Positions 604-64,000 of a DNA stretch of 64,000 nt are shown here, piece after piece. Made by a program: the position numbers and the translations under genes. The notes beneath the pieces were generated by a model. That model was not told the DNA's origin. It worked only from the letters and a program-made list of their open reading frames with translations, and did not search any database. The number at the start of each line of letters is the position of its first letter. Position 1 is the first letter of the stretch. This stretch comes from a virus. The DNA is taken from IMG/VR virus record IMGVR_UViG_3300043409_001491, positions 41,902-105,901 of that record; one strand, 5' to 3'.

Positions 604-1203
604 ATGATAAAAGAAGAAATAGCACCAGGAATAGCCGTATATAGCGATGTAATTCCAAATAGTAATACACTATATCAAGACATTGAAGAAGGAATGGCTT
701 CTGCGGGACTAAAATGGAATGAAGCAAGTGTTAAAGAATCAACAGATCCAATGGTAAACAAAAATACAAGAGACACAAGTACTTTTGGAGTTCAATATGC
801 AGGACAAATAAAAGATCTAACAACAACAGATCCAAGAGAAGTTTTTGGCTTAAGCCTAAATAATATCTTCTTTGAGCATTTTGACCCAGTAGAAAAAGAC
901 TACATGGCAACATATGGAATAGGCTCAGACTGGCATGATGTTTACGGAATTTTAAAATATGGAGCAGGCCAGCAATTTACTAACCACATTGATGACCATC
1001 CAAGTTATCACAGACGAGTATCTACTGTCTACTATTTAAATGATAACTACACGGGTGGAGAAATTAACTTTCCTCGTTTTGGAATTACCTTTAAACCAAA
1101 GGCTAATCAAATGATTGTGTTTCCTTCAACATATGTTTATAATCACTCAGTGTCTCCAGTTATTGAAGGTGAAAGATATGCCGTAGTTAGTTGGTTACGA
1201 TGA
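604..1203 (+). CDS. 2OG-Fe(II) oxygenase, prolyl 4-hydroxylase-like
   Basis: HxD (HID), STVYYLNDNYTGGE, distal His in HSVSPV, Arg in GERY. Confidence 0.85.
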   Translation: MIKEEIAPGIAVYSDVIPNSNTLYQDIEEGMASAGLKWNEASVKESTDPMVNKNTRDTSTFGVQYAGQIKDLTTTDPREVFGLSLNNIFFEHFDPVEKDYMATYGIGSDWHDVYGILKYGAGQQFTNHIDDHPSYHRRVSTVYYLNDNYTGGEINFPRFGITFKPKANQMIVFPSTYVYNHSVSPVIEGERYAVVSWLR

Positions 1204-1760
1204 AAGAGCCATTGCTAGTTAATGATGTTTTAAGTCCAGAAGACTATGCAATTCTTACTAGTGCCGTTTCAAATCCAAAATCTTTTGAATATCAAGAAGG
1301 TTTTTCAAGATATGTTGTTGCAGATAATAATCTTGCAATACTGGCAGAACTTGCAAATAAATTAATTCCTACCGCAAGAGAAGCATTTGGAAGCGATACT
1401 TTACTTCCAACATATACATTATTTGCACACTATGAAGGACAGAACCCTGCTCCAAGTCTTTATAAGCACAAGGATGATAATGCTTGCACATACACTTTAG
1501 ACATGTGTGTTTATCAGAATGAGTCTTGGGATCTGTTTGTTGAAGATAAGGCTTACACGCTTTATCCTAATCAAGCCCTTGCATACTATGGTAATGATCA
1601 GATGCACTGGAGAGAAGAATTTCCTAATCCAGAAACAAATCATGTTGCAATGGTCTTTTTTCATTTTGCAGAACCAGACCACTGGTACTTTACAGAAGGT
1701 CCAGAGTATCTTCACACTCATATTCGTGCAAATAAAGATTCTATGGCTAAAGTCATGTAA
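1200..1760 (+). CDS. Second 2OG-Fe(II) oxygenase-fold protein
   Basis: LYKHKDD (HxD), HWREEF, VFFHF; ATGA overlap with upstream stop. Confidence 0.7.
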   Translation: MKEPLLVNDVLSPEDYAILTSAVSNPKSFEYQEGFSRYVVADNNLAILAELANKLIPTAREAFGSDTLLPTYTLFAHYEGQNPAPSLYKHKDDNACTYTLDMCVYQNESWDLFVEDKAYTLYPNQALAYYGNDQMHWREEFPNPETNHVAMVFFHFAEPDHWYFTEGPEYLHTHIRANKDSMAKVM

Positions 1761-2779
1761 TGAAACCTATCTTTTTTAAACTTTGGAATGCTGGATTGTT
1801 TAACCAAGTGCTAAGTTTAGAGTTAGCAGCAGGGCTTGCTCACGAAACTAAAAAACCAATAATAGTTCATTTTTTTTGTCATGATCCAAATAGAAAAATA
1901 TATATCTCTACACCAAGTATACATTTTAATGATCAAAGAAATAATTTTACAGATCGCTCTTTTAAAAATAACCCTCACCTTTTAGACTTGTTTGATGTTA
2001 GTGCAGATCTAATTATTGTTAATGAAAAAATAGATTCATTTAAACAAGAAGAATTTGTTATAGATGAATTAGCAACTAAATATTATTATAGCAAAGAAAA
2101 AGAAATATCTGATGATGAATTATTGTTTGCAGAAGGCAGAGAAAGACTTACTTTTAATAAAAATATACATTTAAAAGGTACTTTAGGAGTCTATTCAAGA
2201 TTTTTTTATAATAGAAGTCCTGAGTTAAATGAAGTTTTGTCTTCAGTTAAGCCTAAGCAGATCTATCGGGATTTGGCTAAAAAAATATCAGAATCTCTTG
2301 GTAATTTCCAAGGAATGCATTTAAGGTTGTCAGATCATCTTGTAAGCACAGACTATCACAAAGAAGAAATAGTCAATGAATGGATAACAAAATATGAAAA
2401 TAATGGTATTCCTATTGTTTTATCTACAGATGAACCAAGTCACCGATTAGTAAATAAAAATAAGCATAGGTTTATTTTATTGGATGAATACATAGTCAAT
2501 AATTTTAAAGATGATTTTATGTCTTTGCCGTTTCAGGATGAGGTAGTTTTTGGCCTTATTTGTAATTTAGTTTTACATGACTCAGTAAATTTTGTAGGAA
2601 AATCAGGAACTACTTACACATCATATATTCACAGAAACAGGAATCAAAAAAATATTGAAACTTGGGATTTCTTTGATAATCCACCAAAAGCAGAAGGTCT
2701 TCCATATTCTTGGAATAATTATCCTAGACCAAATGATCAAAAAATGTGGTGGAGAGAGTGGCCAGAATCAAAATGCTAA
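1760..2779 (+). CDS. O-fucosyltransferase-like glycosyltransferase
   Basis: N-terminal GLFNQ, GMHLR, VLSTDE and FVGKSGTTYTSYI match the shared alpha2/alpha6/O-FucT motifs. Confidence 0.7.
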   Translation: MKPIFFKLWNAGLFNQVLSLELAAGLAHETKKPIIVHFFCHDPNRKIYISTPSIHFNDQRNNFTDRSFKNNPHLLDLFDVSADLIIVNEKIDSFKQEEFVIDELATKYYYSKEKEISDDELLFAEGRERLTFNKNIHLKGTLGVYSRFFYNRSPELNEVLSSVKPKQIYRDLAKKISESLGNFQGMHLRLSDHLVSTDYHKEEIVNEWITKYENNGIPIVLSTDEPSHRLVNKNKHRFILLDEYIVNNFKDDFMSLPFQDEVVFGLICNLVLHDSVNFVGKSGTTYTSYIHRNRNQKNIETWDFFDNPPKAEGLPYSWNNYPRPNDQKMWWREWPESKC

Positions 2780-3717
2780 GAAACAAAGTAATTATAAATG
2801 CCTGGACAGGAATGTTTGGAATTAGAATGCACGAATATGCATTTGCTAAAACTTATGCACACAAAAACAATATGGACCTTGAATTATTGTCAAACTGGGA
2901 AGGTTCTGTTATGTTTAAAAATGCAACAGAGTCCTTGATAGAGTTTCCAGAGTTACAAGAATATTTAAAAAATGGCGGAAGACCATTAGAAGAAAGAAAT
3001 AATGAAACATTAAAGTATTATCCAGGATCAATATACTGGAACGGTAATTGGCATCCAGAAGATCCGTATAAAAATAATAACTGCTCGATTGTTACTAATG
3101 ACACCAACGCATATCAGGAGTCTATATTTGACCAAATGGAACTTTCCTATATAAAACATATTTTTGAGTTAAGCGATTTAATAAAAGAATCAGAAGTTTA
3201 CAAGCATTGGGAATCAAAAGCAGGAACATACGATGTTGCTCATCTTCGTAGAGGAGATATTGCAGATATTAATTATAATCTTAATAATGAACAAGGCTAT
3301 TCTGTGGTATCAAAAGATTCTTATTTTTCTGCTTTTGAAAAGTTTGGGTATGACAAAGATAAAATTGAATGGATATCAAATGATCATACTAAGAAGTGGC
3401 ATCAAGATAGACCAGACATGATCTTTTTGCCATGGTCTTATCCACAGGGTGCTCAGTTTGATGAAAAACTAGGCTTTGATTTTCTTGATGATTGGTTAAA
3501 GATGTATTTTGCTAGAACAATATTTAGAGGAAATAGCAGTTTTTCTTTCTGGGCAGGACTACTGTCTCCAACAGCAAAGGTTTATTCTCCAGTAGTTGAT
3601 AAACAACTAATCTATGGCCGTGATGGTTTAACAGAAGAATTATTCTTAGATTTTACTGAGGGCAATGAAAATCATTGGATGTATTCTGGCACAGATAGAA
3701 AGATAAGGATAAGATAA
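2773..3717 (+). CDS. GT11-like (alpha-1,2-fucosyltransferase-like) glycosyltransferase
   Basis: GMFG.RM.EYA, VAHLRRGD, NSSFSFWAGLL. Confidence 0.75.
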   Translation: MLRNKVIINAWTGMFGIRMHEYAFAKTYAHKNNMDLELLSNWEGSVMFKNATESLIEFPELQEYLKNGGRPLEERNNETLKYYPGSIYWNGNWHPEDPYKNNNCSIVTNDTNAYQESIFDQMELSYIKHIFELSDLIKESEVYKHWESKAGTYDVAHLRRGDIADINYNLNNEQGYSVVSKDSYFSAFEKFGYDKDKIEWISNDHTKKWHQDRPDMIFLPWSYPQGAQFDEKLGFDFLDDWLKMYFARTIFRGNSSFSFWAGLLSPTAKVYSPVVDKQLIYGRDGLTEELFLDFTEGNENHWMYSGTDRKIRIR

Positions 3718-3718
3718 A

Positions 3719-4741
3719 ATGAAAACAGCACTAGTTTTAGGAGCAGGAGGCTTCATAGGAAGCCATATGGTAAATAGGCTTAAGTCAGAAGGATATTGGG
3801 TTAGAGGTGTTGACTTAAAACATCCTGATTTTTCTAATACACAGGCAGACGAATTTATTGAGAGAGATCTATCTGTATATGAAAATGTTGAAAAAGTTAT
3901 TAAGTTTAAAGGATATCAAGGAAACTTTTACCACGAGATTCCATATCGTTCCATAGATTCATTTGATGAAATATATCAGTTCGCTGCAGATATGGGTGGA
4001 GCAGGATATATTTTTACTGGTTTAAATGATTCTCAGATTATGGAAAACTCTGCTCTAATAAACCTTAATCTTTTAAGAGCACAGTCAAGACTTAATGAAA
4101 AATATGATATAAACAAAACCAAAATATTCTATTCAAGTTCTGCCTGCATGTATCCTGACTATAAGCAGTTAGATGTTAACAATCCTGGATTGAAAGAGTC
4201 TGATGCATACCCTGCAGATCCTGACAGCGAGTATGGCTGGGAAAAACTCTTTAGCGAAAGAATGTTCTTAGCATTTAACAGAAACAATAAGATTCCTGTA
4301 GCAATTGCCAGATACCATAATATTTATGGACCAGAAGGAACTTGGGACGGTGGAAAAGAAAAGGCTCCTGCTGCAATGTGTAGAAAAGTTATACAAGCAG
4401 ATGGTTTTATAGAAATTTGGGGGGACGGAGAACAAACCCGCTCATTCCTATATATAGACGAATGCATAGAAGCAACAAGAAGACTTATGGAGTCAGACTT
4501 TACTGGACCTGTTAATATTGGATCTGAGGAAATGGTTACTATCAATCAGTTGGTAGACATTGCTTGTAGTATTGAAGGCAAGGTTTTAAGCAAGATGCCT
4601 ATTCCTGGACCTTTAGGAGTTAGAGGCAGAAACTCTAATAACGATTTGGTTAGAGAAAAGTTAGACTGGGACTATTCAATGTCTCTTAAGGATGGAATTC
4701 AAAAAACTTATGATTGGATTAAAAATCAAATAAATGAATAA
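3719..4741 (+). CDS. GDP-D-mannose 3',5'-epimerase-like extended SDR
   Basis: GAGGFIG, AADMGGAG, SSSACMYP, YGWEK, GGKEKAPAA.CRK, WGDGEQTRSF, GVRGRNS are characteristic of the GME subfamily. Confidence 0.85.
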   Translation: MKTALVLGAGGFIGSHMVNRLKSEGYWVRGVDLKHPDFSNTQADEFIERDLSVYENVEKVIKFKGYQGNFYHEIPYRSIDSFDEIYQFAADMGGAGYIFTGLNDSQIMENSALINLNLLRAQSRLNEKYDINKTKIFYSSSACMYPDYKQLDVNNPGLKESDAYPADPDSEYGWEKLFSERMFLAFNRNNKIPVAIARYHNIYGPEGTWDGGKEKAPAAMCRKVIQADGFIEIWGDGEQTRSFLYIDECIEATRRLMESDFTGPVNIGSEEMVTINQLVDIACSIEGKVLSKMPIPGPLGVRGRNSNNDLVREKLDWDYSMSLKDGIQKTYDWIKNQINE

Positions 4742-5570
4742 AACTGAAGTTGTAAAAGAATGTTTTATGCCAGATGGAATTGGCGCACAACTTTGGAGAA
4801 AAATTTATGTAATGTCATATGCAAAATATTATAATCTATTGTTTGAAGACACACCAATTACAGATTTTTTAATTCATGAATCTGATAAAGTTTACAGCGA
4901 AGAGGAAAAAATTAAATTTATTGACAAGTTTAATACAATATTAAAAAATCCTTGGAAAGGTATAGATTTTTCTAATAAGGATCATTTTTTTCTTTCTGAA
5001 AAGGTAGGCTTGGGCTATTCTAACCTATATGGACACGCAGGGCTAATAAACCCCCCACATCCATTTTTAGAAGTTGCAAAAGAGTTTAGCACTATAGAAA
5101 AAACTGAAAATAATGTAATTATTCATATACGAAGAGGAAACGTGATTCCAGAAAACCCCAGGTGGGTAGAAGAATCTGTCTATATTGATATGTTACAACT
5201 TTTGCCACATTTTTTAAACAAGTTAAAAATTGTACCAGACAGAGTAATAATTTTTACAGATGCTTCAGATACAAATAAAAGATATAAACCCATAAATCAA
5301 ACCCAATTAGATAAATGGCAACAGGGGCATTTGTATAAAGACGAAAACGATTCTTTTGAAACTACTTCTATAAATTTTGAATTATTTAGAAATTCGTATC
5401 CAGGTATTGAGATTTTAAATAATTTAGATACTTATACGGCTTTTAATATGATGGTTATGGCAAAAGTGCTAATAACATCAAAATCTGCATTTAGCCAGGC
5501 TGCTGGATTGCTATCAAAAAACACTGTTGTGCCAATTGATAACTATGACAGTTGTTTTAAAAATATATAA
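4734..5570 (+). CDS. Third fucosyltransferase-like (GT11/GT23-like) glycosyltransferase
   Basis: DGIGAQ, IHIRRGN, IFTD, LITSKSAFSQAAGLL. Confidence 0.65.
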   Translation: MNKTEVVKECFMPDGIGAQLWRKIYVMSYAKYYNLLFEDTPITDFLIHESDKVYSEEEKIKFIDKFNTILKNPWKGIDFSNKDHFFLSEKVGLGYSNLYGHAGLINPPHPFLEVAKEFSTIEKTENNVIIHIRRGNVIPENPRWVEESVYIDMLQLLPHFLNKLKIVPDRVIIFTDASDTNKRYKPINQTQLDKWQQGHLYKDENDSFETTSINFELFRNSYPGIEILNNLDTYTAFNMMVMAKVLITSKSAFSQAAGLLSKNTVVPIDNYDSCFKNI

Positions 5571-5617: not shown

Positions 5618-6163
5618 TTACTTAGGAAATTTGCTCATCCACATTCTGGTCTTAGGCGTAATGCCTTTCCAAGAAGACCAGTCGTTTCCACCATTGGACA
5701 TGTAGTATGCAATCTCCGCATTTTTGACGGGATTGAATAGTTCAGCGTTAGAGTCAAGATCAAACTTATCTCGTCTATCTGGACCCAGTGTATCAATCAT
5801 ATTAATTTGGAACATCCCGTAGGAGGAGTCCCCAGTCTTATGGTTTCCGTTAAATGCTAAGGGACGACCATTAGATTCTTTCTTAGCAATAGCCCATGCT
5901 ACTACTAAGTCGTTGCCTTTGAATCCCACCAAAGAAAGCAACTTCTTTAATTCAATATCTGTAAGATTTGTTTTGTTTTCATAACGTTCTAACATTTTTG
6001 CTTTAGAAACAACAAAAGCCACCTTGTGGGTGGCAGCAGAGTTTTCAGCGTGTTTAGTTAGTAAGTTGTTTTCCGTAGTTGATGCATTGGCAAAGTTGCT
6101 AAAGGGTGCTACAACTCCGACCATTGCGAGGATTCCAATCCAAGCCTTCTTGTCTCTTCTCAT
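5618..6163 (-). CDS. Secreted lysozyme-like/SLT transglycosylase
   Basis: Signal peptide (MRRDKK, hydrophobic stretch, ANA), AIAKKES catalytic Glu, GMFQIN, N...A..M...G.DWSSW; AGGAGG RBS. Confidence 0.8.
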   Translation of the reverse strand: MRRDKKAWIGILAMVGVVAPFSNFANASTTENNLLTKHAENSAATHKVAFVVSKAKMLERYENKTNLTDIELKKLLSLVGFKGNDLVVAWAIAKKESNGRPLAFNGNHKTGDSSYGMFQINMIDTLGPDRRDKFDLDSNAELFNPVKNAEIAYYMSNGGNDWSSWKGITPKTRMWMSKFPK

Positions 6164-16514: not shown

Positions 16515-18545
16515 ATGTCAGATGTTTTTTCGTTTCGCTTGCTAGAAGATTTTGTAAATAAATATAACAATGTTCCAGCACCCTTTGGTTTCTCAGATGC
16601 TGGATCTAACTCTTTGGGAGAGGTTACATTTATACGCACATACTCACGCATGAAGGAAGACGGTACAAAAGAACGTTGGCACGAAGTTTGTCGTCGTGTA
16701 ATTGAGGGTATGTATTCAGTACAAAAAAACCATGCTAAAGATAATCGTCTACCATGGAATGATAACAAGGCTCAGAAATCTGCACAAGAGGCATTCCAAA
16801 GAATGTTTGAATTAAAGTGGACACCACCAGGCCGTGGTCTATGGGCATTTGGAACTCCTATGACTATGGAGAAACGTAATTCTGCTTCCCTTCAAAATTG
16901 TGCAATGGTTTCAACTCGTGACATTGATCGCAATGATCCAGGTGCTTTATTTGCTTGGGTAATGGATGCATTAATGCTGGGTATTGGGGTTGGATTTGAT
17001 ACCCTTGGAAAAGACAAGCAGATGTCAATTTATGCACCTACAGAGCCAGCAATAGTTTATGAGATACCAGATACTCGTGAGGGTTGGGTTGAATCTGTTA
17101 GACTTTTAATAAATTCATACCTTCGTCAAAACCAGCCTATTCAAGAGTTTAACTATGACCTTATCCGTCCTCTAGGAGCACCCATTAAAGGCTTTGGAGG
17201 GGTTGCCAGCGGTCCAGCACCATTAATTGAACTACATATACGTATTAGAAATGTAATTGGCTCTAGAGCAGGGCAAGAATTTGATTCTCGTGCAATAGTA
17301 GACATTGTTAATCTTATTGGTACCTGTGTTGTTTCTGGAAATGTTCGTCGTTCTGCTACCCTTGCACTTGGGGCACCAGAAGATGAAGGTTTTATTAATT
17401 TAAAAAATCCAGAAGTATTCCCAGAACGTAACTCCTATGATCCAGAAAAACCAGGATGGGCTTGGATGTCTAATAATTCTATTTCAGCAACAGTTGGAAC
17501 AAAATATGAAGACTATGTAGATTTAATTGCAGACAATGGAGAGCCAGGATTTATTTGGTTAGATGTTGCAAGAGAATACGGAAGATTAAAAGATGCACCA
17601 GATTATAAAGATTCAAGAATTATGGGATTTAATCCATGCGCTGAGCAACCCTTAGAGTCTTATGAATTATGCACACTAGTAGAAGTTCATTTAAACCGTC
17701 ACGAATCTAAAGAAGATTTTTTGCGTACACTTAAGTTTGCATATCTTTACGGAAAAACCGTTACTCTTATGCCTACACACTGGCCACAAACAAATGGCAT
17801 TATGCAACGTAATCGTCGCATTGGCACATCTCTTACTGGTATTGCATCTTTTGCAGATACTAGCGGTCTTCCAGCATTGCGTGAGTGGATGGATGAGGGA
17901 TATACTAAAATTCGTCACTATGATCATAAATATTCAGAGTGGCTTTGTGTTCGTGAATCAGTTCGTGTAACTACCGTCAAACCTTCAGGATCTGTTTCTC
18001 TTCTATCAGGTGCAACTCCTGGAGTTCACTGGGGACCTGGTGGAGAATTTTATCTTCGTGCTATTCGTTTCGGTAATACCGATCCAATGATGTATTTATT
18101 TAAAGCAGCGGGATATAAAATTGAAGACGATGTTGTATCAGCAAATACCTCAGTGGTTTATTTCCCAGTTGCATCAGGACACAAACGTTCTGAAAAGCAG
18201 GTTAGTTTATTTGAAAAAATTGGTTTGGCAGCAACAGCCCAAAAGTATTGGTCTGATAATGGCGTTTCCGTTACTCTTTCATTTGATAAAGAAGAAGAGA
18301 CAAAGTTTATTGCTCCAGCCCTAAACATGTATGAGGGTCAACTAAAGGCAGTCTCATTTCTCCCAATGGGTAACAAGACTTATCTTCAACAGCCATATAC
18401 AGAGATTACAAGAGAAGAGTACAACTCTTACGTTGGGACAATTGGCAAGATTGACTGGTCTGCAATTTATGATGGCAAAGATAATTTAGATGCAGAATCT
18501 GAGAAGTACTGCTCAACAGATGCTTGTGAGATTAAATTATATTAG
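16515..18545 (+). CDS. nrdJ: Class II adenosylcobalamin-dependent ribonucleotide reductase (RTPR-type)
   Basis: RTYSR, PPGRGLW, LQNCA, GNVRRSA, NPCAEQ..LCTLVE, TTVKPSG, C-terminal CSTDAC. Confidence 0.9.
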   Translation: MSDVFSFRLLEDFVNKYNNVPAPFGFSDAGSNSLGEVTFIRTYSRMKEDGTKERWHEVCRRVIEGMYSVQKNHAKDNRLPWNDNKAQKSAQEAFQRMFELKWTPPGRGLWAFGTPMTMEKRNSASLQNCAMVSTRDIDRNDPGALFAWVMDALMLGIGVGFDTLGKDKQMSIYAPTEPAIVYEIPDTREGWVESVRLLINSYLRQNQPIQEFNYDLIRPLGAPIKGFGGVASGPAPLIELHIRIRNVIGSRAGQEFDSRAIVDIVNLIGTCVVSGNVRRSATLALGAPEDEGFINLKNPEVFPERNSYDPEKPGWAWMSNNSISATVGTKYEDYVDLIADNGEPGFIWLDVAREYGRLKDAPDYKDSRIMGFNPCAEQPLESYELCTLVEVHLNRHESKEDFLRTLKFAYLYGKTVTLMPTHWPQTNGIMQRNRRIGTSLTGIASFADTSGLPALREWMDEGYTKIRHYDHKYSEWLCVRESVRVTTVKPSGSVSLLSGATPGVHWGPGGEFYLRAIRFGNTDPMMYLFKAAGYKIEDDVVSANTSVVYFPVASGHKRSEKQVSLFEKIGLAATAQKYWSDNGVSVTLSFDKEEETKFIAPALNMYEGQLKAVSFLPMGNKTYLQQPYTEITREEYNSYVGTIGKIDWSAIYDGKDNLDAESEKYCSTDACEIKLY

Positions 18546-42200: not shown

Positions 42201-43598
42201 TCAACGCAAACAGCACTGGGCAGCATTCCTTACTATCAGGTTAGTGGAAGCCAGCCAGACCAAAACGTAAACATCGGCGGAGGCTCTGGAGGTCTTGCAG
42301 TTTTATTAAATCCAGAAACAAATAATGGATATTATTTTGAAATAATTGCTTTAACTGAAGATAACATTACTCCTTATTTAAAATTAAATAAAGAGAATCA
42401 GGCAGAGGTATCAATTAACAATGTTGTGTTTTATAAAATTAAAAAAGATTCTAGCAACACCAATGCAATCCCAGTTAAACTTTGGGGGGGCTTGGCAAAA
42501 ATACTTGTAGATGATGGTAAATTTTCTGGACAACAAAGAATGGCTTCTGAAGAAAACTCAACGGTTTATGATTTATCAGTAGAGTATCAAGACATTGGAA
42601 AAACTAGAAGGTTCTATTTATATATAAATAATCAACTAATTAAGATAGTAGATGACAAAGATCCTCTTCCAGTCTATAACAATATGGCTTTATTTGTTCG
42701 TGGATCTTCTAAGTGTATGTTTGAAAACATTTATGCTTTATCACAAAACTATAGCCAAAATACATCTTTCGTTGTAGGAGAAACATTATCAAAGCAGTTT
42801 GGTGACTCCCAGGTTGATGTCAATGAGTCTTTTAGAAAATATGCAATGAGCGGCGTTGTCCAATCAACATACCTATCGGGTATAAGTTCTCAGCAGCCAC
42901 CAAACTACAATATGTATTTTGAAGAGTTTGGTTCTATTATGCGTGAGTGTGCATATTTTGATATTAAATATGATCGTGCATACCCAGCACTTTATGCACA
43001 ACTATCTCCAACGTTTAGCAACACAAAGGGCTACACAACTTCTGGGTTTTACGCAGACTCTTATGGTGCTGAGTTCTTAATTTTTAACTCAACAGACAAA
43101 GCCTTAAACTTAGATGAGACAACTGGAAACTTTTTAAGAATTCAAGGCATTACATTTACACAAGACACAACGCATGAACTAACTGTAGATGAGTTTTTTA
43201 AAAAACGTGGCAATTTATCCGATCCAGAATTAGTAGGTAGCACTCTCACGTACTCACCTCTGGTTGAAAAATCAAGGTATGACGAAATTAGATTAAGTAG
43301 ATCAACCTATGGTAAAAACGAATTTAGCATTGATAGCATATACATACAAACACAAGATGATGCAGAAGCAATGATGAATTGGATTATAAATAAAGTTATG
43401 GTTCCCAAAAAGTCTATGGGTATTAATTTATTTAGCATACCAACCCTACAACTTGGAGATATTGTAACGGTAGACTACAAGGATTCATCAGGTCTTGATT
43501 TAGTGACATCAGATTCTTCAAGGTTTGTTGTTTATAATATAGAGTACTCTAGGTCTGGTTCTGGACCAAGCATGACTGTTTATTTGAGTGAGGTATAA
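39282..43598 (+). CDS. Large tail tip/baseplate hub protein
   Basis: 1438 aa; hub-like motifs (EVLNQLA....AMFFDEYN, PTLQLGDIVTV). Confidence 0.65.
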   Translation: MFVSETLKTHLETSSTISLQSLVLAEWNMNMPDNIYKLGNYRYRPLDSDVTYKTLPLAFDNLDAGNYYTGATDADVVIDGGYTNLEVPQLFTSTKEKVKILYSLEDCVKPFRPRSGINKASYFNNRYLANSGASMTLRPRYYMPSRYDEFKYWSSFRTEDNIERGVAKNILNSLNYIDDAVPFVVYKNAVPANRLVVKMQTNVGTVNMGTMITQAGSLGDPLYGVTNKTTPVRWKIQYLRGNDWSDAYSFDENSLRDDDTAIIPEDGYVELEYGLKIPDQYKTNFTFAEKLSSSTLLPEDSINGYAYLVVENENERGLFYIWDEANTEYDTFIPEYGWILGAGVLNRSTKLVTDLTNPELFTNDSNNLTTYREFAYIRGIRVVVETMNKFDCTFDLIEMSPRLVVDISNKVIDFNIKKILSDIGTTSLPVGQLLASTGSLSLFDDDQAFNENNTASIVSSYIRKNIKFLFYESIFNVQGDEYSVPIKTLYSEGFPQADVTGATLSLELRDFYFFLESMPAPRLLTTQTSLSYAISLLLDYIGFSNYTFKRVDEENDPIIPYFFIAPDQNVAEVLNQLAVSTQTAMFFDEYNNFVVMSKDYLMPTLAQRATDFVVSGSNNQTDSGITENATSGKLPNILSIASQDKKIYNDGKINYTTRYIQRSYGSIKQSSMIDKEKTWIYKPSLLWEVAGTDSTKTINELASKQGSYVLGAMPLNSNIPAVAPTVLGNVVINNIIDLGENIYWLTRYNGYLYSNGEIIKYDAAQFSVTGVGNVWISSNQEYQKYFASIPFNGKIYPTGLVRIYSTPYYETVNGITRLQNGAVVDHGRGQFGTKITDHYAGINTYWTDNSNVRGVDMKTQYLFTTTLDEDISLPATTTGAAGVNNTVAGQSTRNSIIKNFMATSDLTDTDINGLLSTQTGTIQSSALVFNGPSFKTTETPLNFVSYVYKNLDNAYRHFGTRMRIVGKIENNISSTQTALGSIPYYQVSGSQPDQNVNIGGGSGGLAVLLNPETNNGYYFEIIALTEDNITPYLKLNKENQAEVSINNVVFYKIKKDSSNTNAIPVKLWGGLAKILVDDGKFSGQQRMASEENSTVYDLSVEYQDIGKTRRFYLYINNQLIKIVDDKDPLPVYNNMALFVRGSSKCMFENIYALSQNYSQNTSFVVGETLSKQFGDSQVDVNESFRKYAMSGVVQSTYLSGISSQQPPNYNMYFEEFGSIMRECAYFDIKYDRAYPALYAQLSPTFSNTKGYTTSGFYADSYGAEFLIFNSTDKALNLDETTGNFLRIQGITFTQDTTHELTVDEFFKKRGNLSDPELVGSTLTYSPLVEKSRYDEIRLSRSTYGKNEFSIDSIYIQTQDDAEAMMNWIINKVMVPKKSMGINLFSIPTLQLGDIVTVDYKDSSGLDLVTSDSSRFVVYNIEYSRSGSGPSMTVYLSEV

Positions 43599-43599
43599 T

Positions 43600-44436
43600 A
43601 TGAGATTTAATCCAGATCGCATGTCTACTGATGATGGAAGTTATATTGAACCAACGCAAACTGTAGCAACTCAAACAAATGACATGCAAACATCAAAAGT
43701 AGTAGATGAAACAGATGAGCGCCAAACATCAATATTAGAAGCAAAGACTAGCAATGGGAATTTAATTAAAGCCCTTGAGGCTTTAGCAACAAAAGATATT
43801 ACCCCTACACCCACTCCAACCCCCACTCCAACCCCCACTCCAACCCCTAAGCCGCTCACCAAGCCAGCCACCCCCACACCAAAAGTAGTTAAACAAATAA
43901 TTTCAACTTCTGATTTAATAACATCAAACCCTTCAACTCCAAGGCCTATTCCAATAACACCAAACCCATCTCCTGTTGTAAAAACACCACCACCTCCTCC
44001 AGTAAAAACAGCACCAATAGACACAGTTTTATTTAATGATGACTCCATGTCTATTGAAATAATGGCTGATTTAATTTTTGAAGATATTGGGGGACATGAA
44101 TTAATAAACATTGCTAGAAACGACATTATTAATGGACAGCAAATATCTTATACACCAATCAAAAACCTAGGCTTAATTCAGCAAAAGTATAACCCAAACA
44201 ATATTCTTGGATTACAGGCTACCTCTGAAAAGTACTTTGCTAACTTTCCTATAAAGTTTGAAGAGAAGGTGCCTATTGAGGGCAATGGTCCCAACGGGTT
44301 AAATGTTTATTTTGAAGATGCAACTGGAGATCTAATTATTGAGGGAGTTAATTTAAATAAAGATGAACTTTTTGAGGTTGAAGTGTCGTTAAATGGTACA
44401 ATATATGAAGCAGACTTTGGAGCAACTACATCATGA
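43600..44436 (+). CDS. Minor tail protein with Pro/Thr-rich linker
   Basis: (PT)n and PPPPP linker; ATG 43600 after GAGG. Confidence 0.55.
   Translation: MRFNPDRMSTDDGSYIEPTQTVATQTNDMQTSKVVDETDERQTSILEAKTSNGNLIKALEALATKDITPTPTPTPTPTPTPTPKPLTKPATPTPKVVKQIISTSDLITSNPSTPRPIPITPNPSPVVKTPPPPPVKTAPIDTVLFNDDSMSIEIMADLIFEDIGGHELINIARNDIINGQQISYTPIKNLGLIQQKYNPNNILGLQATSEKYFANFPIKFEEKVPIEGNGPNGLNVYFEDATGDLIIEGVNLNKDELFEVEVSLNGTIYEADFGATTS
43801..43848 (+). repeat. Coding tandem repeat (PT)n
   Basis: CCCACTCCAACC-type 12-bp units. Confidence 0.8.

Positions 44437-61974: not shown

Positions 61975-64000
<2,026 letters not shown>

Follow-up and report, generated by a model that had tools for sequence, protein, structure and literature searches.

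In the Synechococcus phage S-SCSM1, a GDP-mannose 3,5-epimerase (GME) gene stands beside genes for 2-oxoglutarate (2OG)-Fe(II) oxygenases, an O-fucosyltransferase (O-FucT), an alpha-1,2-fucosyltransferase (FucT) and a NodZ-type enzyme, a set termed 'cell wall synthesis and modification' (PMC9602691). In this work, a comparable six-gene cassette was analysed in the IMG/VR virus record IMGVR_UViG_3300043409_001491. The analysed window, a stretch of 64,000 nucleotides, covers bases 41902-105901 of this complete 105,901-bp record, and the cassette occupies window positions 604-5570; positions refer to the window unless a genome coordinate is given, and open reading frames (ORFs) are named by their first nucleotide. 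We hypothesize that this operon is expressed late and works in the cytoplasm as a tailoring system, putting hydroxyl groups and L-galactose (L-Gal) or L-gulose (L-Gul) on the phage's own proline-repeat fibre proteins, and we place the probability of this reading a little above one half (roughly 55%). By its sequence, the locus is real and coherent, a variant of viral glycosylation and hydroxylation systems that comes with an explicit substrate hypothesis.

The GME of S-SCSM1 is 65% identical to the product of ORF 3719. S-SCSM1 is a cultured T4-like cyanomyovirus whose set is known by annotation, whereas the present phage is a siphovirus-like actinophage. In S-SCSM1, GMD and Fcl lie next to GME, so GDP-L-fucose is available, whereas this genome and its lineage have neither. 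Furthermore, no proline-array substrate was noted for S-SCSM1, while here a proline-array fibre gene adjoins the cassette. Mycobacteriophages also glycosylate virion proteins (Freeman 2023, cited in PMC12582341). What the two actinobacteriophage systems have in common is soluble glycosyltransferases (GTs), encoded beside structural genes, that act (here, are predicted to act) on the phage's own virion proteins in the cytoplasm. The mycobacteriophage systems reportedly lack hydroxylases, a GME or other enzyme for an L-galactose donor, and long proline-repeat substrates, and their GTs are said to be of other families.

In the chlorovirus PBCV-1, a prolyl 4-hydroxylase (P4H) is described as active on virus-type proline-rich repeat peptides (Eriksson 1999, cited in PMC7019647), and the virus makes its own GDP-L-sugar via GMD/GMER (Tonetti 2003) and glycosylates its capsid protein, as reviewed in PMC7019647; an unpublished note in the reference list of that review has it that hydroxyproline (Hyp) was not detected in PBCV-1 particles. 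However, PBCV-1 is a eukaryotic giant virus, its P4H and sugar genes do not form one operon with a substrate gene, and its donor route leads through GMD/GMER to fucose and not through GME. The same logic, a P4H acting on a repeat or a defined proline followed by soluble GTs, underlies eukaryotic Hyp glycosylation in the plant and algal hydroxyproline-rich glycoproteins (HRGPs; extensins and arabinogalactan proteins, AGPs) and in Skp1. The cytoplasmic Skp1 pathway of Dictyostelium and Toxoplasma, made up of the P4H PhyA, Gnt1 and PgtA, has a fucosyltransferase step, PgtA carrying an alpha-1,2-FucT domain. Unlike these pathways, the cassette has no GT95, GT60 or GT31 initiator, all its GTs fall in the FucT superfamily and the predicted sugar is L-Gal or L-Gul; by analogy, it may work like the HRGP and Skp1 pathways, but it is not a member of them. 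A further likeness is to the metazoan tailoring of EGF domains by AspH (PF05118) and POFUT1 (PF10250), given that ORF 1191 is distantly AspH-like, ORFs 1760 and 4734 are POFUT1/2-like, and the many small Cys-rich modules of the fibre proteins are the kind of substrate that AspH and POFUT1 modify. This resemblance is remote, and the modules are not EGF domains by the tests run. No description of a phage system with a P4H, a proline-array fibre and an L-sugar was found in the literature searches, and the role of viral P4H has been termed 'cryptic' (PMC9301287).

Enzymes of the six-gene cassette

The initial annotation proposed six tightly coupled genes, and all of them are present on the + strand, overlapping or abutting, at 604-1203, 1191-1760, 1760-2779, 2746-3717, 3719-4741 and 4734-5570. 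Successive ORFs overlap by 13, 1, 34 and 8 nt, with one 1-nt gap. Because the reading frames overlap, co-translation of the six genes is implied, and by its sequence the cassette is a translationally coupled operon.

Donor supply is assigned to ORF 3719 (3719-4741, +), which is, on sequence grounds, an unambiguous GME orthologue. It matches Arabidopsis GME (2C59) over residues 6-339 with 303 bits (E 2.9e-89), compared with 82 bits for the next family of short-chain dehydrogenases/reductases (SDRs; 6zl6) and 44 bits for Fcl, and it also matches phrog_540 at 3.7e-76. The Cys145/Lys217 acid/base pair, the Tyr174-x3-Lys178 motif and the N-terminal GxxGxxG of the Arabidopsis enzyme are all aligned in ORF 3719, in which C143, Y172, K176 and K215 as well as G8/G10/G11/G14 are invariant across 16 viral GMEs. 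The earlier observation that this SDR keeps the GME catalytic set is thereby confirmed, and the bit scores place it with GME. Relative to the plant enzyme, ORF 3719 carries an 18-residue insertion (about residues 62-80). Matches at the DNA level are confined to the GME gene and do not span the GT/GME junction. The predicted products are GDP-L-galactose as well as GDP-L-gulose, made from GDP-D-mannose.

The initial annotation saw no GMD/Fcl fucose pathway in the window, and this holds for the whole genome: no GMD, Fcl or sugar nucleotidyltransferase/NDP-sugar pyrophosphorylase was found in the complete 105.9 kb. GME is thus the phage's only route to a GDP-L-sugar. The only other SDR of the genome is a GalE/WbgU-like UDP-hexose 4-epimerase in a minus-strand glycosylation cluster. 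On the other hand, calling the locus self-contained was too strong, because GDP-mannose has to come from the host. The proposal that GME feeds fucosyltransferase-like GTs is supported by the adjacency of the genes, in both gene orders, in relatives without GMD and Fcl, and by the acceptance of GDP-L-Gal by the fucosyltransferases FUT8, AtFUT1, AtFucTA and FucT-V (PMC8787198).

ORF 604 (604-1203, +) is, by its sequence, a P4H-type 2OG/Fe(II) oxygenase and the sole PF13640 gene of the genome (67.6 bits vs a cut-off of 27). Its closest solved relatives are the collagen prolyl 4-hydroxylases of B. anthracis (3itq/5hv0, E 7e-6), and the HxD...H...R pattern is kept, with H128-x-D130, H181 and R191 aligned to the BaP4H ligands. 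Peptidyl-proline hydroxylation is the most likely activity, as predicted from the adjacent X-Pro arrays and from co-occurrence with such arrays in relatives. The enzyme also gives a faint Tet_JBP match (E 0.007, 16 bits), which would suit another reading, in which TET/JBP-like oxygenases act on bases of the phage DNA and the GTs glycosylate the hydroxylated base; phage systems combining TET and GT enzymes for DNA modification do exist. However, since ORF 604 is of the P4H type and not of the TET/JBP type, and since no thymidylate-synthase-family hydroxymethylase was found in the genome, such DNA hypermodification is very improbable. Moreover, the cassette co-varies with a protein repeat type (see below), and to our knowledge no fucosyltransferase-superfamily enzyme acts on DNA.

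The two 2OG-Fe(II) oxygenases of the initial annotation are not equally secure, the identity of ORF 604 being firm and that of ORF 1191 (1191-1760, +) standing at moderate confidence. ORF 1191 itself has no Pfam match, PF05118 (Asp/Asn beta-hydroxylase) included, and no usable NCBIfam match. An exhaustive search gave a family of 564 representatives, for which no name exists. Across 43 diverse members, only H93, D95, W113, H139 and R141 never change, and these include the pattern H93-x-D95...H139-x-R141. Across that region, a 50%-identical homologue passes PF05118 (22.8 bits vs a cut-off of 22.6), and longer family members are fusions with PF13640 or PhyH oxygenase domains. ORF 1191 also matches phrog_2954 at 2e-13, and its ESM features lead to PF13640 clusters. 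A profile search of the family against sequences of the Protein Data Bank (PDB) gave chance repeat matches only, and hhalign of the family against ORF 604 was not significant, though the HxD motifs are in register. Taken together, ORF 1191 is a probable second 2OG oxygenase, distantly related to the Asp/Asn beta-hydroxylases without being an AspH member.

ORFs 1760, 2746 and 4734 encode the three GTs, called O-FucT-like (one) and GT11-like (two) in the initial annotation. The superfamily resemblance stands by fold, motifs and homologues, whereas membership of a curated Pfam family does not: none of the three passes the PF01531 (GT11), PF05830 (NodZ) or PF10250 (O-FucT) model, and the proteins themselves have no Pfam match even at E 10 and no NCBIfam or PHROG match. 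The curated families match homologues of the GTs only (PF10250 18 of 28, PF01531 one and PF05830 one). Because none of them passes a family model itself, the three GTs are assigned at the superfamily level only (GT11/GT23/GT37/GT65/GT68). A GDP-beta-L-sugar donor, Fuc or L-Gal, is predicted from fold, motif and genomic linkage to GME. Searched by tblastn against 50,697 GenBank phage records, none of the three had a match.

One of them is ORF 2746 (2746-3717, +; its start is possibly the ATG at 2773), a GT11-like enzyme with HLRRGD and NSSFSFW motifs. Its AlphaFold2 (AF2) model (predicted local distance difference test, pLDDT, 92.3) hits NodZ at 6e-7 in Foldseek, and its VIA Z scores are 13.7 for AtFUT1, 11.6 for FUT8, 11.2 for NodZ and 11.1 for POFUT1. 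The top 43 structural rows are all FucTs; a fold of another kind is first met at Z 8.1. In the family, H166, R168, R169, N263, S264, F266 and S267 (HLRR, NSSFSxW) are invariant; a profile search of the family against PDB sequences found nothing.

ORF 4734 (4734-5570, +) is a second GT11-like enzyme, marked by HIRRGN and KSAFSQAAGLLS. Its AF2 model (pLDDT 92.4) is closest to POFUT1 (Foldseek 8e-5; VIA Z 10.6), with WaaC close at 9.4. The fold by itself is thus ambiguous, and the superfamily placement is settled by hhalign to the ORF 2746 family (94%, E 1.4e-7), in which HLRRGD falls on HIRRGN and the SxFS motifs are aligned. Within the ORF 4734 family, H131, R133, R134, G135, S251 and F253 are invariant, the motifs being HIRRGN and KSAFSQ, and one homologue carries PF05830 NodZ. 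Orthology of ORF 4734 to the gene after GME in S-SCSM1 was considered and rejected. To the SynMITS9220M01 counterpart, it shows only a faint likeness.

ORF 1760 (1760-2779, +) is O-FucT-like and related to PF10250, which 18 of its 28 homologues match, with a best value of 5e-5. Its family profile finds POFUT2 in the PDB at E 0.08, a weak match in which the HLR and GTSxST motifs are in register. Motif I is partial (HLRLSD): H187, L188 and R189 never vary, and another residue stands in place of the second Arg. The motif is accompanied by GxSGTTYT. An hhalign comparison of the ORF 2746 and ORF 1760 families was not significant. ORFs 1760 and 4734 are the most AT-rich segments, with GC of 0.28 and 0.29 (at 1801-2400 and 4801-5400, respectively) vs 0.36-0.39 in the flanks. 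No other genes of the cassette vary as much, each being kept by some relatives and missing from others, and their low GC fits recently exchanged accessory genes.

Proline-array proteins and their relation to the cassette

The best substrate candidate, on sequence grounds, is a fibre protein of 277 aa with (Thr-Pro)n arrays (genome 40942-41775), whose gene lies immediately upstream, ending 127 nt before the window and ~730 bp 5' of the cassette. It is built from (TP)23+22, then a Cys-containing domain of 70 aa, then (TP)19+14 and finally a tail rich in Cys. Since its arrays freely use synonymous codons (all four for Thr and all four for Pro), it is at the protein level that the repeat is kept. 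In relatives, the protein encoded upstream is fibre-like and reaches 865 aa, a 'beads-on-a-string' in which proline arrays join small Cys-rich modules. The array unit differs by phage, being (TP)n, (PVA)n, (TPVAP)n, (PPVA)n or (PV)n, so that proline is the only constant residue.

Two further candidates lie within the window, where the initial annotation had placed proline-rich genes near 43600 and 61975; the ORFs are real and begin at 43588 and 62002. The first (43588-44436, +) is a tail-module protein whose translation has (TP)8 and a poly-Pro linker, encoded after tail genes for 2247 and 1438 aa. The second, a candidate of the Val/Ala type, has 948 aa and (PPVVA)n/(EPPVL)n arrays; its 5' 666 codons lie in the window (62002-64000, +), and the ORF reads on past the window through the 127-bp terminal repeat of the genome. 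The N-terminus of this protein is signal-like, and besides the arrays it contains an Ala/Thr/Val-rich region and acidic repeats; at its C-terminal end, a hydrophobic stretch precedes RIRRRKP, as in a protein anchored at the cell surface. Another protein considered as a P4H substrate was a collagen-repeat, tail-fibre-like protein (genome 38636-39379), ~3 kb upstream of the P4H-like gene, with 35-41% identical copies upstream in many relatives. Its 15 G-X-Y triplets have four Lys and one Pro at the Y position, and with only one X-Pro-Gly site it is a weaker candidate than the arrays.

Two other repeat elements were seen in relatives. The fibre ORFs of L020, L021, L057 and L060 carry, between proline arrays, a module of ~30 residues with four Cys, C-x-P-D/N-x-A-W-S-Y-N-Q-S-x-C-Q-A-C-G-Y-Y-x(8-10)-C. 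Given the neighbouring AspH-like and POFUT-like enzymes, such modules could, by analogy, be modified as EGF domains are. Pro-Phe repeats, (PPFF)/(PSFPFF), a second unusual kind of proline repeat, make up proteins or segments in the same structural neighbourhood at L106:15508-16326 and L097:15439-16410 and inside the fibre ORFs of L012, L018, L039 and L057.

The comparison drew on 78 viral loci that encode an ORF 2746 relative, to which 73 others encoding a GME relative were added; GME relatives were present on at least 598 viral contigs. In the close relatives, with GMEs at least 80% identical, the cassette is modular, so that the same flanking genes, encoding a DUF6171 protein on one side and an SLT protein on the other, enclose varying combinations of the five accessory genes. 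Among ORF 2746 relatives of at least 41% identity with adequate flanks, GME was in the locus in 24 of 26 cases, directly adjacent in 17 and in both gene orders, while a true GMD was found in only three. In more distant ORF 2746 relatives, GME was nearby in none of 11. Within the close lineage of 21 relatives, at least one FucT-like GT stands beside GME in 20 loci, and neither GMD nor Fcl was found in any of the 21. A cyanomyovirus-like group of ~70% identity often has GMD adjacent, with or without Fcl.

By comparing the oxygenase and proline-array fibre genes in the 21 relatives, both were found together in 17 loci, the oxygenase only in one, the array only in none and neither in three. A strict (TP)n regular expression had suggested oxygenase cassettes lacking a substrate; this was rejected, as a general proline-density scan reveals Val/Ala-Pro arrays. 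The type of GT also follows the type of array. The ORF 2746-type GT was present in all 14 cassettes beside Thr-type arrays vs none of nine beside Val/Ala-type arrays, and the ORF 1760-type GT in nine of nine beside the latter. On the GME gene tree, the GT/array state changed at least seven times, with well-supported discordant sister pairs L032/L103 and L027/L097, and the independent pairs agreed in five of five cases on supported branches and seven of seven on all branches. Both array types and all three GTs are present in this genome.

The distribution of the genes also bears on the alternative of two unrelated modules, with the oxygenases acting on the proline arrays or elsewhere and GME with the GTs serving another target such as Ser/Thr of the capsid or tail, host GDP-L-fucose being a possible donor for some GTs. 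GME and GT occur without the oxygenase in L024, L030, L031, L035, L088 and L093, and the ORF 1191-type domains are fused to other oxygenases, not to GTs. In addition, mycobacteriophage virion glycosylation is said to target capsid and tail-tube proteins and to need no hydroxylase. Such a division into two modules is nevertheless unlikely in our view, with the co-translation implied for the six genes, the ORF 2746-type GT tracking the Thr-Pro arrays of the adjacent fibre gene, and the absence of GMD and Fcl from the whole lineage all speaking against it.

Genomic setting and host

The phage is assigned to actinobacteria because a WhiB-family gene (genome 10285-10458, 44 bits) is above the Pfam cut-off and because the portal is 44% identical to portals of ~127-kb Streptomyces siphoviruses, which bears out the actinophage context suggested before; WhiB is a hallmark of actinobacteria and their phages. 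With a genome GC of ~36%, the host is best read, from the sequence, as a low-GC aquatic actinobacterium. The terminal repeat of the genome is only 127 bp long, which suggests a circularly permuted genome or circular assembly and not true long direct terminal repeats (DTRs).

On its 5' side, the cassette is preceded by a small Cys-rich DUF6171 protein gene (354-593, +; PF19668 at 2.9e-7), a conserved flank that most related loci also have immediately 5' of the cassette, in copies 45-82% identical. The 3' part of a 141-aa ORF (1-348, +; start at genome 41824, before the window) lies between the (TP)n protein gene and the cassette and has a weak phrog_14370 match only and no Pfam match. Farther upstream, a 194-aa protein has a C-terminal domain that matches a protein of Roseobacter phage CRP-3 labelled 'putative structural protein'. 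On the 3' side, the convergent gene of an SLT_3 lysozyme-like protein (5618-6163, -; PF18896 at 1.9e-16) is a constant flank, with 56-95% identical copies beside the cassette in relatives. Its hydrophobic N-terminus (KD19 1.71 at residue 7) may mark the protein as an endolysin of the signal-anchor-release type or as a lysin associated with the virion. Beyond it come cement-like, fibre, portal, protease and capsid genes, so the cassette has structural genes on both sides. A ribonucleotide reductase gene (16515-18545; phrog_367, 1.4e-142) was also seen between large fibre and structural genes, an odd place for nucleotide metabolism.

A second six-gene glycosylation cluster was observed in the early-strand region (genome 14194-19361, minus strand). 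It encodes a GT4-like GT, two proteins of 252 and 290 aa, an FkbM-type methyltransferase, the GalE/WbgU-like epimerase mentioned above and a Glyco_trans_1_2 protein, and it may build another glycan or add more units to the glycan of the cassette.

This setting has to be considered for the possibility that the six genes are an auxiliary set for host-envelope remodelling, adding L-galactose or L-fucose to a host surface glycan or glycoprotein and, e.g., blocking superinfection or altering grazing. Similar cyanophage genes were read in this way for S-SCSM1 (PMC9602691), some members of the lineage keep GME and GT without the oxygenase or proline-array gene, the early, minus-strand region holds the second glycosylation cluster, and the 948-aa PPVVA protein has the signal-like N-terminus and C-terminal hydrophobic anchor of a cell-surface protein. 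Against this, a transmembrane (TM)-like segment is found in none of the six enzymes, and no flippase, polymerase or priming transferase was recognized among the genes scanned. The cassette is co-oriented with the structural genes and embedded in their block, and its composition co-varies with the repeat type of the neighbouring fibre gene. We therefore regard envelope remodelling as rather unlikely, though as the likeliest alternative to the tailoring of fibre proteins. The GTs lie among fibre, tail and head genes, as would be expected of phage virion glycosylation, and the structural acceptor is a candidate named from its sequence.

Proposed pathway and its meaning

In the favoured pathway of fibre tailoring, GME would convert host GDP-D-mannose into GDP-L-galactose, with some GDP-L-gulose. 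Fibre residues would be hydroxylated by the oxygenases; for ORF 604 the likeliest target is Pro of the X-Pro arrays, and ORF 1191 may act on Asp/Asn or some other residue within the small Cys modules. The GTs would then transfer the L-hexose onto Thr and/or Hyp of the arrays and extend the glycan, and they may be divided by array type, with the ORF 2746 type serving (TP)n and the ORF 1760 type serving Val/Ala-Pro arrays. On (TP)n arrays, Thr is at least as likely as Hyp to be the site of sugar attachment. The product would be a mucin- or extensin-like glycosylated fibre, which may be stiffened, protease-resistant or host-binding. We infer the donor, acceptor, modified residue and virion location alike. 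From the earlier interpretation, the gene identities, the actinophage context, the lack of a fucose pathway and the GME-GT link are retained, and the idea of a proline-rich substrate is strengthened by the upstream (Thr-Pro)n protein, whose repeat type co-varies with the enzyme set.

Several points weigh against this pathway. The association of oxygenase and array represents only one or two phylogenetically independent contrasts, and the sign test for GT and array gives p = 0.06, the minimum attainable with five pairs. Neighbouring genes transferred together as one recombination block could mimic functional matching. GME and GT occur without the oxygenase or proline array in L089, L093 and L108, and the oxygenase occurs without the array in L029; therefore the glycosylation module also acts on another target. 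By sequence, the fibre proteins are candidate virion components only. Pfam scans of the six cassette proteins found none of the Hyp-specific GT families GT95, GT60 and GT31, and ORF 1760 has HLRLSD and not HxRRxD. GDP-L-fucose might come from the host, and the analogous cyanophage genes have been interpreted as modifying the host cell wall (PMC9602691).

A more specific and broader proposal, which we hold tentatively and consider doubtful at present, is that phages of aquatic actinobacteria run an extensin-/mucin-like pathway on fibres of their own, in which P4H-type enzymes would make Hyp arrays and repeat-matched GTs of the FucT fold would add L-galactose or L-gulose supplied by the viral GME.

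Few 'auxiliary' genes of aquatic viromes are as abundant as those for P4H-type oxygenases. In this locus, the enzyme, the donor supply, the transferases and the likely substrate are all found within 6.5 kb, and natural variation ties the transferase type to the repeat type. Because all parts sit in one locus, what phage P4H and GME genes do becomes directly testable. No bacterial virus has so far been shown to hydroxylate and sugar-coat its fibres. If the proposed pathway is true, protein hydroxylation and L-hexose glycosylation would join the known chemistry of phage particles, which would matter for how the particles recognize hosts, how stable they are and how immune systems or grazers recognize them, and new GTs would be at hand for making L-galactosides. 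The broader proposal, if true, would also mean that the abundant 'cryptic' viral P4H genes gain a substrate, and a glycoprotein with L-galactosylated hydroxyproline or threonine would be the first for a bacterial virus.

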